A stretch of 64,000 nt of DNA from Bdellovibrio sp. ArHS. Its GTDB lineage: Bacteria > Bdellovibrionota > Bdellovibrionia > Bdellovibrionales > Bdellovibrionaceae. Below, piece after piece: positions 763 to 52,919 of the stretch. The notes under the pieces are model-generated. The model was not told the origin of the DNA and did not search any database. It worked only from the letters and a program-made list of their open reading frames with translations. Both the position numbers and the translations under genes were made by a program. The number at the start of each line of letters is the position of its first letter. Positions within the stretch are counted from its first letter, which is position 1. The stretch lies in assembly GCF_000786105.1 (NCBI RefSeq), contig NZ_JTEV01000006.1, positions 16,410 through 80,409 of the forward strand, read 5' to 3'.

Positions 763-1971
763 TTAGCGAACCACGATTTTCGCGAACTTCTTCTTACCTG
801 CTTTGATTACGAAGCTTTCACCCGTTTTCAAATTCATTTTAAGCTTAGGATCGGAAATCTTCTCGCTGTCAATTTGCACGCCTCCACCTTGGATCAGGCG
901 CGAACCTTCACCGTTGGAAGCGACAAGACCTGCTTTCGCCATCAATGCGGGAAGACCGATCTCGCCCGCTTCGGTAGCAAATTCAGGAACATCATCTGGA
1001 AGTCCTTTATCAACAAAGATGCGATGAAACTCTTCTTCCGCCGCATGGGCCGCCGCTTCCGAGTGGAAACGTTTGATAAGAAACTTCGCCAAATTCACTT
1101 TCACATCGCGCGGATGTTTGCGTTTTTCCGCAACATCCGTCTTTAACTGCGCCAATTGGTTGGCGGTAATATCTGTTAAAAGCTCGTACCAGCGATACAT
1201 CAAATCGTCGGAAATTCGCATCGTCTTTCCGAACATGTCTTTGGGCGTATCGATAACGGAAATATAGTTATCCAACGACTTCGACATTTTATGAACGCCG
1301 TCGATACCTTCCAGAATTGGCATCGTAAGAATACATTGCGCTTCCTGGCCGTAAGATCCCTGCATGTCACGACCGACCAAAAGATTGAACTTCTGATCCG
1401 TCCCGCCCAATTCCACGTCAGCCTTCAAGGCCACCGAGTCATACCCTTGTGTCAAAGGGTACAGGAATTCATGAATACCGATCGGCGTGCCTGAACGATA
1501 ACGTTTGGTAAAATCCTCACGCTCCAACATGCGCGCCACGGTGTACTGGGCTGACATTTTGATGAAATCCTGCGGAGTCATCTTGCCGATCCATGACGAG
1601 TTGTAAACAATCTCTGTCTTTTCAGGATCTAAAATTTTAAAAATCTGTTTCGCGTAAGTGCGACCATTTTCTTCGATCTCTTCACGCGTTAACATCGGTC
1701 GAGTGGTGTTCTTGCCGGAAGGGTCCCCGATCATCGCCGTGAAATCACCGATCAGAAAATAAACTTTGTGTCCTAATTCCTGGAATGTCCTTAGCTTATT
1801 GATGACCACCGTGTGACCGATATGAATATCCGGACGCGTGGGGTCCGCTCCCAACTTAATGTTCAGCGGCTTTCCTTTTTTCAGCTTCTTCAACATATCT
1901 TCGTCGTTGATGAACTCAGCGACACCGAATTTGATTCTTTCAAGCTGCTCACGAGGATCTAAAAAACTCAT
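763..1971 (-). CDS. tyrS: tyrosine--tRNA ligase
   Basis: GADPT, HIGH and KMSKS class I motifs, GGTDQKFN, C-terminal S4-like domain. Confidence 0.98.
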
Positions 1972-1989
1972 AGACTCAAAATCCTTTTT

Positions 1990-3555
1990 CTAGCGGGCGT
2001 GCTCAACACTTCGCGTTTCACGAACAACGGTCACCTTCACGGCCCCCGCTTGAGGCATTTCGCGCTCAATCTTACGAGCGATATCACGTGACAACATCAC
2101 CGCCTGATCGTCCGTAACCTTGCTGCTTTCAACCAAGACCCGCACGTCTTTACCCGCCTGTAGAGCCAGAGTTTTTAGAACGCCGTCAAAGCTGTTGCCG
2201 ATGCTTTCAAGGTCTTCCAAACGATGAATGAAGGAATCCATTTGTGGACGACGTGCCCCTGGACGAGAGCTGGAAAGAATAAACGCCGCATGGACGATCC
2301 ACGCCAGAATAGAGTGCGGTTTTTCTTCTTCATCATGGGCACGAATCGCATGACAGACGTCTTCCGACTCGTTGTACTTCTTCGCAAATTCAGCACCGAC
2401 GAACGCGTAACTGCCTTCGGCTGTGTGATCAATCGCTTTACCGATATTGTGCAATAGGCCCGCGCGGCGAGCGATCTTCACATTCACACCCATTTCGCCA
2501 GCAAGAAGACCGGCGATGTTGGCCACTTCCAAAGCTTGATTCAGGGCATTTTGTCCTTGGTAGGAACGGTATTTCAAACCGCCGATGATTTTCACCAGTT
2601 CAGGATGCATGTTGGCGATCCCCAACTCCATCACATGACGTTCGCCTTCTTCTTTGATTGATTTCATTAATTCCGAGCGCTGCTTTTCCACAACCTCTTC
2701 GATACGGGCCGGATGAACACGACCGTCTTCCATCAGTTTTTCAATTGTTCGGCGAGCCAATTCGCGGCGAACCGGATCGAAACCAGAAATAACCACGGCT
2801 TCCGGAGTGTCATCGACGATCAAGTCCACGCCACACAAAGCTTCCAGTGTACGGATGTTACGGCCTTCACGACCGATGATTTTCCCCTTCATTTCATCGT
2901 TTGGCAAAGCCAGCACACTCACGGTACGCTCAGAGGTGTATTCAGAGGCAAAACGAGACAGGGCCGTCGCCAAGATCCGTTTTGCTTTTTTATCAGCTTC
3001 TTTGTTGGCCTCTTCTTCGATCTGCGCGATTTTTTTCGAAGCTTCTTGTTTGGCTTCATCTTCCAAAGCGCCCAGAAGCTGGCGACGGGCTTCGTCCTGG
3101 CTCATGGCTGCGACCGACTCTAGCTTTTGCTTAAGTTCGCCGATATGGGCTTCGCCTTTTTTCTCAAGATCCTTAATACGATTTTCAGAGATCGCGATCT
3201 TTTCTTCGCGATCTTTCAATGTGTTTAGATAACGCTCGTTTTCTTCCATCTTTTGCTTGAACTGATCTTCGATTTCTTTCAAGCGACGGTCCAATTGCGA
3301 TTCTTTATTTTTCAAAGTGGACTTTTGTTTGTGAATGTCAGCTTCGACATTCTTGCGAGCCCGGCCTTCAAAGTCTTTGGCTTTGGTCTCTGAATCCTTT
3401 TTGATTTTCGCGGCTTCAGACTTCGCCTTGTTCACGATTCTTTCAGCCTCAACCCGCGCAGACTTTTTCTTATTTTCATCCTGAACACGTTTGATGATGA
3501 AAACAATGGCTCCACCCAACAACAACGCAACTATGGCGGTGATTACTAACTCCAT
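1990..3555 (-). CDS. rny: ribonuclease Y homologue (HD metal ligands degenerate)
   Basis: N-terminal TM, coiled coil, KH motif (KGKIIGREGRNIR), HD-like domain, C-terminal RETR. HD reads LLHNIGK. Confidence 0.95.
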   Translation of the reverse strand: MELVITAIVALLLGGAIVFIIKRVQDENKKKSARVEAERIVNKAKSEAAKIKKDSETKAKDFEGRARKNVEADIHKQKSTLKNKESQLDRRLKEIEDQFKQKMEENERYLNTLKDREEKIAISENRIKDLEKKGEAHIGELKQKLESVAAMSQDEARRQLLGALEDEAKQEASKKIAQIEEEANKEADKKAKRILATALSRFASEYTSERTVSVLALPNDEMKGKIIGREGRNIRTLEALCGVDLIVDDTPEAVVISGFDPVRRELARRTIEKLMEDGRVHPARIEEVVEKQRSELMKSIKEEGERHVMELGIANMHPELVKIIGGLKYRSYQGQNALNQALEVANIAGLLAGEMGVNVKIARRAGLLHNIGKAIDHTAEGSYAFVGAEFAKKYNESEDVCHAIRAHDEEEKPHSILAWIVHAAFILSSSRPGARRPQMDSFIHRLEDLESIGNSFDGVLKTLALQAGKDVRVLVESSKVTDDQAVMLSRDIARKIEREMPQAGAVKVTVVRETRSVEHAR

Positions 3556-3561
3556 GATCCT

Positions 3562-4131
3562 TTACTCCTGATACTTCCTGCAATCGACCACACCAGTTTC
3601 CGTGATCAGGTAGTCCATGATCACATCGTGGGTTTCGGTCGGGATGGGGTCCACTGTCACTTGAAAGTCAAAACAGACGCCCACTTTCATCCCGCGGTAC
3701 CAGGACAGGGTCTTATCGTAAAACCCTTTTCCCTTTCCCAGGCGATTGCCATTCTTATTAAAAACCAAACCGGGAATCAGCAGTCCCTGAATATCTTTGA
3801 GGTCTTGTGCCGTCGAATCTGGAGAGGGCTCCAGGACTCCGTAAGGGCCCACCATAAATGTGCGGGCATCAAAGAATTCCAGATGGCCTTCCCGCATGCG
3901 CGGAAAAACCCACTTCAGGTGAGAGATCTGAAAGACCTCTTCCACCTGTGCTTCTTCGGGCAGAGCTCTGTAAGCTCCCCAAACTCCATTTTGCGAATTT
4001 AAAAAATCCTGCAAAACAGAATTAAGCTGCTGCTGATTTTGAACAAGACCTTGCGCGAACTCTTGAGCGCAAAGAGATTTAAAGAAGGAACGACATTCCT
4101 TTTTAGAGCTCCAAGGAAACGACATGGACAC
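3562..4131 (-). CDS. ygfA: 5-formyltetrahydrofolate cyclo-ligase
   Basis: PGLVF...GNRLGKGKGFYDK and HDVIMD motifs; usual position between zapA and rny. Confidence 0.93.
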   Translation of the reverse strand: MSMSFPWSSKKECRSFFKSLCAQEFAQGLVQNQQQLNSVLQDFLNSQNGVWGAYRALPEEAQVEEVFQISHLKWVFPRMREGHLEFFDARTFMVGPYGVLEPSPDSTAQDLKDIQGLLIPGLVFNKNGNRLGKGKGFYDKTLSWYRGMKVGVCFDFQVTVDPIPTETHDVIMDYLITETGVVDCRKYQE

Positions 4132-4151
4132 TCCAAGAGATCAAAACAAAG

Positions 4152-4466
4152 TTAGTTGTTCAAAACCTTGTTGTTCTTGGAATTTTCTAGTTCGACGGAA
4201 AGTTGCATCGCTTTTTCTTCCAGCTTTTCCAGTTCACGATGCGCTTTTCTTTTCAAAAGGATCAGTTCTTCCGCCAAGTTCATCGCTGTCAAAACAGCGG
4301 CATTTTGGAAAGAACCGTTTTTAGTAACTGACATGGCCTGATTCATCTTATTATTTACAAATGTGACGAGCTCTTCGACTGTGGCATCGTCATGAGAGGT
4401 TTTTAATTTGTAAGGGACACCCGCAATTAGAAAATTGTAGGTTTTTTTATCAGATGTCACTAGCAC
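4152..4466 (-). CDS. zapA: cell division protein ZapA (start may be GTG at 4460)
   Basis: IAGVPYKL beta-hairpin, AAVLTAMNLAEEL helix, C-terminal coiled coil; synteny with ygfA-rny. Confidence 0.92.
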   Translation of the reverse strand: MLVTSDKKTYNFLIAGVPYKLKTSHDDATVEELVTFVNNKMNQAMSVTKNGSFQNAAVLTAMNLAEELILLKRKAHRELEKLEEKAMQLSVELENSKNNKVLNN

Positions 4467-52833: not shown

Positions 52834-52919
52834 CCTTTGCCTCAAGGCAAACCGTCGGAAACGGCGGGACGCAAAGCTAGAGGGGTGTCGGTTCGTCCAC
52901 GCCAGCCAGCTGCCAAAGG
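52834..52919 (+). promoter_or_regulatory. cyclic di-GMP-I (GEMM) riboswitch aptamer
   Basis: GGCAAA-CCGTCG-GAAA-CGGCGG-GACGCAAAGC...CAGCCAGCTGCC core; P1 CCTTTG/CAAAGG; GNRA-capped P2. Confidence 0.93.

Follow-up and report, generated by a model that had tools for sequence, protein, structure and literature searches.

An RNase Y paralog with an eroded HD metal site in Bdellovibrio and its co-inherited second copy with an altered KH loop

Introduction

In many bacteria the decay of mRNA begins with RNase Y, an enzyme whose catalytic part has no experimentally solved structure. The present analysis concerns an RNase Y gene of Bdellovibrio sp. ArHS, rny copy A (positions 1990–3555, minus strand), and its relation to a second RNase Y gene of the same genome, paralog B. 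Positions are those of the window, that is, the whole stretch of 64,000 nucleotides analysed (contig NZ_JTEV01000006.1, 16,410 to 80,409), and copy A, all its parts and the genes next to it lie on the minus strand. The RNase Y of Bacillus subtilis (Rny/YmdA; TIGR03319) is a dimer or tetramer that self-associates through its transmembrane (TM) and N-terminal regions, and an AlphaFold dimer model of RNase Y places the KH domains beside a central hole (PMC9775385). Single mutations in the HD motif of the B. subtilis enzyme nearly abolish its activity, and H368A/D369A is an inactive allele (PMC10303841). The extended motif H..HD..H..H(H)..D is the signature of dinuclear HD sites (PMC8177086). Copy A resembles canonical RNase Y in length, in architecture and in sequence (about 45% identity), scores above the family cut-off and occupies the locus used for rny by its single-copy relatives in the phylum. 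It differs from the canonical enzyme in having five of the seven HD ligands replaced and in coexisting with a paralog whose site is intact.

Pairs made of an enzyme and a pseudoenzyme paralog are a kind already known. In the J1/J2 complex of RNase J, RNase J2 is largely structural. RNase J1 and J2 of the Bacillota are like A and B in being a duplicated RNA-decay nuclease, with paralogs that are unequal in activity and in the metal content of their active sites, and that interact (PMC7864078). They are unlike A and B in having the fold of beta-CASP metallo-beta-lactamases and in that no reciprocal loss of an RNA-binding motif has been described in the active partner. In the prozymes, for which AdoMetDC and its prozyme in Trypanosoma brucei are the example, the reports describe a dead paralog that is conserved as the heteromer partner of an active one (PMC5201418, PMC6221367), which is the likeness to copy A. 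These are eukaryotic metabolic enzymes, and they involve relief of autoinhibition, in contrast to the division of RNA binding and cleavage proposed here. Copy A shows two of the marks of a pseudoenzyme partner, namely catalytic residues lost under purifying selection and an active-looking paralog inherited together with it.

Two further comparisons concern single domains. Bd1817, an HD-GYP protein of Bdellovibrio bacteriovorus (PDB 3TM8), is like A in the replacement of the terminal Asp, in its case by Asn, and is inactive on the expected substrate (PMC8177086). Unlike A, it belongs to the HD-GYP family of c-di-GMP signalling and binds two iron ions, whereas A has lost four further ligands. 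The other comparison is with divergent KH domains of the Dim2/Pno1 type and concerns the partner B, not copy A; these domains, like B in its model, keep a KH-like fold without the GXXG loop. KH domains without GXXG lose nucleic-acid binding and make protein contacts (PMC3413153). Our literature search found no published account of ligand loss, KH loss or their complementarity in an RNase Y pair, and a pairing of enzyme and pseudoenzyme has not previously been noted in the RNase Y family.

The HD metal site of copy A

Copy A is an intact open reading frame (ORF) of 521 amino acids with a TAG stop codon at 1990–1992, and it encodes, at the ancestral locus, an RNase Y paralog that is full-length but whose HD site is degenerate. 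It matches TIGR03319 (the RNase_Y equivalog) with 607 bits against a curated cut-off of 454, residues 5–521 aligning to model positions 2–514, and Pfam detects RNase_Y_N, KH_1 and HD in it. The proteins nearest to it, 98% identical, come from Bdellovibrio bacteriovorus and Bdellovibrio sp. HCB117 and bear the name ribonuclease Y.

The first-pass annotation of this gene, made from the DNA alone, had listed substituted HD motifs and concluded that every metal ligand was gone. The motifs are present in the intact frame as listed, with Q340, N370, Y383, D408 and F425 (numbering of the copy A protein; codon coordinates were checked), but 'every' overstates the loss, as five of the seven ligands are replaced and H369 and H407 alone are retained. 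Q340 (2536–2538, motif NQALEVA) stands for the first ligand His, which is H in all canonical and B sequences. H369-N370 (2446–2451, motif GLLHNIGK) replaces the HD dyad, H368-D369 in B. subtilis, the second residue of which is D in all canonical and B sequences. Y383 (2407–2409, motif EGSYA) takes the place of the ligand His of EGSH, a residue that is H in all B. The HH pair has become H407-D408 (2332–2337, motif IRAHDEEE), in which H407 is invariant and position 408 is H in all B. F425 (2281–2283, motif HAAFIL) replaces the terminal ligand Asp, which is D in 121 of 121 B sequences. N370 aligns with D369 of B. subtilis; the B. subtilis sequence used for this alignment agrees with the published 520 amino acids and the HD at 368–369.

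The canonical state was defined from 80 organism-named loci in a collection holding one genome per species. Of these, the 74 outside Bdellovibrio/Pseudobdellovibrionaceae served as the canonical comparison set and come from Bacillota, Spirochaetota, Myxococcota, Bradymonadales, Thermodesulfobacteriota, Coriobacteriia and others. All 74 have H, HD, K, H, HH and D in the ligand columns, and the KH loop is GREG in 73 and GKEG in one. The same ligand state occurs in 124 canonical sequences taken from the phylum and from a protein library clustered at 50%, and the single-copy genomes sampled in the phylum are likewise all canonical at these columns. The organism-named loci put every degenerate copy in Bdellovibrio/Pseudobdellovibrionaceae. 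Canonical RNase Y has 75 columns with a conservation of 90% or more. Among these, copy A is changed at 5 of 7 ligand columns versus 6 of 68 others (Fisher p = 0.0005), so that its losses concentrate on the metal ligands more than chance would give.

Even the minimal HD ligand set, H..HD..D (PMC8177086), is incomplete in copy A, where only H369 among Q340, H369, N370 and F425 is a ligand. The catalytic motif of RNase Y, H..HD..H..HH..D, is lacking as well, and copy A, while a homolog and a positional ortholog, is therefore not to be classed as a functional RNase Y enzyme. With five of the seven ligands missing, among them the counterpart of B. subtilis D369, copy A cannot form the canonical dinuclear site. 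We infer from these replacements that copy A is a pseudonuclease which has lost cleavage. To this extent the first-pass reading of copy A as a pseudonuclease scaffold is sustained; the scaffold part is taken up below.

Paralog B

A search with the RNase Y model has identified a second full-length match in the same genome, on contig C5 (1486–3069, plus strand), with 423 bits, which is under the TIGR03319 cut-off. Looking for a second, intact rny had been suggested in the first-pass annotation, and paralog B answers to that description at its HD site and not at its KH domain. It is an ORF of 527 amino acids, 34% identical to A over the whole length, the N-terminal regions being the least similar parts. 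All seven ligands are kept (FHCGEV, MLHDIGK, EGGHA, KAHH and IAADAV). The GXXG loop is DPNG, IGREGRNIR of A corresponding to CDPNGNNIK in B, and the two KH arginines that flank the loop are lost. Pfam did not detect KH in paralog B (E = 0.065), and none of the 120 listed B orthologs has a precomputed KH hit, whereas all listed A orthologs have one.

AlphaFold2 (AF2) models of single chains, of moderate confidence, agree for the two proteins in the KH topology (beta-alpha-alpha-beta-beta-alpha) and in the HD helices, with a mean pLDDT of 77.5 for A and 75.5 for B. At the GXXG position the model of B has a longer, non-helical loop. Acidic substitutions in the KH loop are known to abolish binding without unfolding the domain (PMC3413153). 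The KH domain of paralog B has probably lost RNA binding in a comparable manner, judging from its residues.

The naming of the two copies in public sources does not follow their motifs. At NCBI, copy A is 'ribonuclease Y' and B is 'Rnase Y domain-containing protein', and elsewhere B is called 'DUF3552 domain-containing protein' or even 'HAD superfamily hydrolase'. That B. bacteriovorus has two RNase Y genes is already recorded in databases, and UniRef uses the name 'Ribonuclease Y 2'.

Reciprocal retention in the orthologs of A and B

The pattern was followed in 120 A orthologs (77–100% identity) and 121 B sequences. The A orthologs, from Bdellovibrio/Pseudobdellovibrionaceae, are constant in length in more than 100 cases. 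The GXXG loop of copy A (G228-R-E-G231, 2863–2874) is intact and lies in a canonical KH domain (residues 206–285, 2701–2940; Pfam KH_1, E = 1.4e-8) in which 25 of 26 canonical conserved columns are retained. The loop is GREG in 120 of 120 A orthologs. In the B orthologs it reads D-P/A-x-G, the first glycine being replaced in 121 of 121 (D in 120, N in 1). The ligand columns show the opposite. Column 340 is Q in 70 and H in 50 of the A orthologs, column 370 is N in 71, E in 30, D in 9, S in 8 and A in 2, and column 383 is Y in 110, H in 9 and I in 1. Column 408 is D in 69, Q in 24, H in 13, N in 10, A in 2 and E in 2, and column 425 is N in 50, Y in 37 and F in 33, with D in none. In B the same five columns are H, D, H, H and D in all sequences, and each of the 121 has the full set of seven ligands. 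Overall, A retains 96% of the canonical conserved columns of the KH domain and B 38%, while in the HD domain the figures are 71% for A and 95% for B. The first-pass annotation was therefore right that the KH domain of copy A is kept, and the same holds for its TM and coiled-coil regions.

Erosion of the ligands within the A clade is stepwise and clade-specific. The D-to-N change at 425 is the universal first step, and the most distant members have gone no further (HHDKHHHN). Other clades read HHDKHHEN, HHERYHQN or HHSRYHNN. All 70 A sequences that are at least 85% identical to copy A have QHNKYHD[F/Y], with two of seven ligands left.

These replacements bear on whether copy A might still be a nuclease, with a remodelled site made of H369, H407 and D408 together with the oxygen donors Q340 and N370, and perhaps with a mononuclear Mg2+. 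Several of the replacing residues are potential metal ligands (Q, N and D here; E, Q, N and S in other clades), the HD domain is under purifying selection, and Bd1817, whose terminal ligand position is Asn, binds two iron ions (PMC8177086). Genomes with A only carry D425N, so that this single change is probably tolerated. However, the replacements vary from clade to clade (QHNKYHDF, HHERYHQN, HHSRYHNN, YHYIHQQS), which fits relaxed constraint on the ligands and not a new defined site, and every one of them is one nucleotide away from a His or Asp codon. Neither F425 nor Y383 is a good ligand, B. subtilis RNase Y depends on D369, the counterpart of N370 (PMC10303841), and Bd1817 with its D-to-N change is inactive (PMC8177086). 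We consider a remaining nuclease activity of copy A very unlikely.

Selection on the two genes

Selection was estimated from codon alignments of A and B in 26 genomes of the genus, using NG86 dN/dS over all qualifying pairs and over the pairs with dS < 0.9; dS within the genus is high (0.5–1.2), so the values are approximate. For the whole gene, dN/dS of A is 0.052 over all pairs and 0.028 over the restricted pairs, and that of B is 0.052 and 0.032. The KH domain of A gives 0.011 and 0.007, the lowest values in the gene, and the KH-like domain of B 0.042 and 0.022. For the HD domain the values are 0.044 and 0.028 in A and 0.022 and 0.013 in B. The coiled-coil region of copy A (RNase_Y_N) lies at 0.04–0.06. 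Both genes are thus far below neutrality in all domains, and the relative constraint is reciprocal, the KH domain being tighter in A and the HD domain in B. The degenerate HD domain of copy A is kept for something.

The loss of catalytic residues could by itself be taken as a sign that copy A is a decaying gene under relaxed selection. The frame of 521 amino acids is intact, its length is constant in the orthologs, and two families have kept the gene since the duplication, which is old. Decay is refuted by a dN/dS of about 0.03–0.05 overall and 0.007–0.011 in the KH domain, and its probability is negligible. Relaxed selection over the whole gene, which the first-pass annotation had proposed to check by dN/dS, is excluded by values of 0.03–0.05 for the whole gene and the HD domain.

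Constraint on an HD domain without most of its metal ligands would also be expected if the pocket of copy A bound a nucleotide or a second messenger without hydrolysis and so regulated RNA decay. Conservation under purifying selection extends to the HD fold and to many of the residues that line the pocket, and the residues in the ligand columns are fixed in the genus clade (QHNKYHD[F/Y], 70 sequences). Bdellovibrio itself offers a precedent in the inactive HD-GYP protein Bd1817 (PMC8177086), and degenerate HD-GYP, EAL and GGDEF domains that act as receptors offer an analogy. No result points to any ligand, however, and the pocket residues vary between the A clades, which speaks against one conserved ligand. 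Such a sensor would be compatible with the other readings and would replace none of them; we regard it as highly improbable.

Distribution and history of the two copies

The distribution of rny was examined in a phylum sample of 301 genomes, in which f1 denotes the family of the source genome, f2 its sister family and f24 an unrelated family. Two copies occur in 35 of 36 f1 genomes, in most of f2 and in f24, and every other lineage that bears rny has a single copy. Paralog B is present in all 26 genomes of the genus and in 35 of the 36 family genomes. Single-copy genomes have both the GXXG and the HD motifs intact. In every two-copy genome the first copy, which has the high model score and GREG, shows D425N or worse, and the second copy has an intact HD site. 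The GXXG loop of the second copy is broken in f1 and f2, where it reads GENR, GPER, GHEL, ADNQ, GPNR or GENK. In three f1 genomes where no B was found (G277, G316 and G319), A keeps six of the seven ligands.

The genes around copy A show which of the two copies is the older in position. A co-directional string of four genes (763–4466) comprises a zapA-like gene, a 5-formyltetrahydrofolate cyclo-ligase (5-FCL)-like gene, rny and tyrS, with gaps of 20, 6 and 18 nucleotides. This zapA-5FCL-rny-tyrS setting is common to A, to the first copy of f2 and f24, and to single-copy genomes of many families, and it is never found around the second copy. This makes A the positional ortholog of the ancestral gene and B a relocated, fast-evolving duplicate. 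In a maximum-likelihood (ML) tree the A sequences of f1 and f2 make up a single clade, which is nested among single-copy Bdellovibrionales. Their B sequences likewise make up a single clade, supported at 100%, and its stem measures about one substitution per site. Six f2 genomes branch in identical order in the A and B clades, which indicates one duplication followed by co-inheritance.

The first copy of f24 groups with the intact single-copy genes of family f12, and the duplication in f24 is, as judged from the tree, a separate, independent event. With groups defined after the tree was seen, an approximately unbiased (AU) test rejects both a common clade of all eroded copies (p = 0.0003) and a common clade of all second copies (p = 0.002). 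In f24 it is again the copy at the ancestral locus that is eroded, including D425 and H408 (HHDKHHNN, HHDHSHEN and HHDLHHSN), and the site of the second copy is kept.

Two observations on other lineages of the sample concern the integrity of rny. In genome G056 of family f3, an in-frame TGA interrupts the sole rny found (L049/L059) between model positions 342 and 344. The two halves have a canonical appearance (GREG; HDKHHHD), and the TGA may stem from a sequencing error, mark a recent pseudogene or be recoded. In family f22, the single RNase Y homologs (L045–L047) match only about positions 180–514 of the model, which is the KH, HD and C-terminal domains, and their motifs are intact. They seem to be without the N-terminal TM and coiled-coil part and sit on a very long branch of the tree.

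A possible division of labour between A and B

An obligate hetero-oligomer of A and B at the membrane, in which A would supply RNA binding and B cleavage, is the reading that we favour, and we hold it to be moderately probable. It is favoured because of the reciprocal retention of motifs, the conservation and co-inheritance of both genes, and the f1 genomes without B in which A keeps six of seven ligands. The KH domain of A, and probably its HD surface, would capture and position the RNA, and the HD site of B would cleave the RNA so positioned. Each paralog would have come to depend on the other by complementary degeneration after duplication. Since the ancestral RNase Y was homo-oligomeric, mixed oligomers would be the default state after duplication, and A and B would interact physically.

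Several observations weigh against such an obligate pair. Genome G321 has an eroded A (HHAMYQHS) and no detected B, in an assembly that is fragmented (390 contigs, 92% complete). Genome G211, from family f8 of the same order and 98% complete, shows a B-type copy only, with a GPND loop and an intact HD site; if this is real, B works without A there, unless the assembly misses A. The second copy of f24 retains its GxxG loop, which shows that an HD site can erode without KH loss in the partner. The N-terminal parts, by which the B. subtilis enzyme self-associates, are the most divergent between A and B, and the support for an A–B interaction is indirect, consisting in the oligomeric state of B. 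subtilis RNase Y. The within-genus dN/dS values on which the reciprocal constraint is read are, with dS so high, approximate.

The divergence of the N-terminal regions would also suit a different role, in which copy A on its own is a membrane-bound RNA-binding protein, a scaffold or a regulator and is not bound to B in an obligate complex. Its task could then be to shield or sequester transcripts, to bring in other decay factors or to vie with B for substrates. The intact TM, coiled-coil and KH regions and the strong purifying selection on copy A agree with this. The RNase inventory of the genome includes one short RNase E/G homolog (a frame of 509 amino acids), and RNase J was not found in the genome, so that a scaffold role is not obviously filled by another protein. 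A stand-alone role leaves unexplained, however, why the GXXG loss of B tracks the catalytic loss of A, and why A and B are co-inherited in almost all f1 and f2 genomes. It also has to contend with the homo-oligomeric ancestor, which makes heteromers the default after duplication (PMC9775385). We think a stand-alone function rather unlikely. The first-pass annotation had ended on such a scaffold; given a second copy with the reciprocal defect, an enzyme/pseudoenzyme pair has the better support.

The hetero-oligomer also suggests, more tentatively, something about RNase Y in general. The catalytic unit may lie between subunits, the KH domain of one protomer presenting RNA to the HD domain of the other. 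One KH/HD pair per dimer would then be sufficient, and the other pair would be free to decay. We regard this arrangement as possible but doubtful.

Other features of copy A and its neighbourhood

Copy A has the RNase Y architecture of a TM helix, a long helical region, KH, HD and a C-terminal domain, as seen from Pfam and the AF2 secondary structure. The N-terminal TM helix (residues 1–25, MELVITAIVALLLGGAIVFIIKRVQ, 3481–3555) is a hydrophobic stretch and a helix in the AF2 model. It is followed by the long helical or coiled-coil region of RNase_Y_N (residues 26–205, 2941–3480; PF12072, 110 bits), with AF2 helices at 3–148 and 153–202. The HD domain (residues 331–430, 2266–2565) keeps its fold around the degenerate metal site and is detected by Pfam HD (PF01966, E = 8.7e-13) and by HDIG TIGR00277 (56 bits). 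At its end, a loop with the sequence SSSRPGARR (residues 428–436, 2248–2274) is conserved in A, in B and in canonical RNase Y; S428, R431, P432, G433, R435 and R436 are invariant across the A and B alignment, and many residues lining the HD pocket are also identical between the two. The C-terminal alpha/beta domain (residues 431–521, 1993–2265) has AF2 strands at 459–467, 471–478 and 506–513.

Foldseek searches with the full-length AF2 model are dominated by matches to long helices and multidomain proteins and are informative solely for the KH, HD and C-terminal folds. The HD fold of copy A matches YqeK, 2pq7, 3ccg and 2ogi, and Dim2p is among the matches of the KH region. A search of the PDB by protein sequence and profile found no solved RNase Y and only weak HD matches (Cas10/Csm1). 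The C-terminal domain resembles the cytoplasmic C-terminal domains (CTD) of the cation-diffusion-facilitator (CDF) transporters MamM and YiiP, with TM-scores of about 0.6–0.7 relative to the target. This likeness might be a hint to the function of the RNase Y C-terminal domain.

Upstream of rny, at a distance of 6 nucleotides, is the ORF of the 5-FCL-like gene (3562–4131), a syntenic marker whose identity we take from the zapA-ygfA arrangement. The zapA-like gene (4152–4466), placed by ORF and synteny, is the first of the apparent zapA-5FCL-rny-tyrS operon. A promoter-like site upstream of it (4576–4549) is weak and not above shuffled sequences. 6S RNA (ssrS) was looked for between the zapA-like and 5-FCL-like genes and was not found, unlike in the zapA-ssrS-ygfA arrangement of E. 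coli. Downstream of rny, after 18 nucleotides, the tyrosyl-tRNA synthetase-like ORF tyrS (763–1971) is syntenic in many families of the phylum.

Elsewhere in the 64-kb window, a c-di-GMP-I riboswitch aptamer was detected at 52836–52917 on the plus strand (RF01051, 60.6 bits; gathering score 35), and no other Rfam family in the window exceeds its threshold.

Significance

The finding has a direct bearing on annotation in a model predatory bacterium, in which the dead copy is called 'ribonuclease Y' and the likely active copy is called only a domain-containing protein. It would add a case from bacterial RNA decay to the short list of enzyme/pseudoenzyme heteromers. Convergent evolution is part of the evidence for it, as is a ligand loss that proceeds step by step from HHDKHHHN through HHDKHHEN to QHNKYHDF. 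Paralogs that only bind RNA and only catalyse would be a ready-made genetic dissection of RNase Y, and such a reciprocal pair predicts complementation between subunits. The complementary erosion, having evolved twice, may serve as a natural experiment on the mechanism of RNase Y. If the inter-subunit reading is true, the architecture of the active RNase Y oligomer would be constrained for the first time, and the Bdellovibrio gene annotated as 'ribonuclease Y' would encode the non-catalytic subunit.

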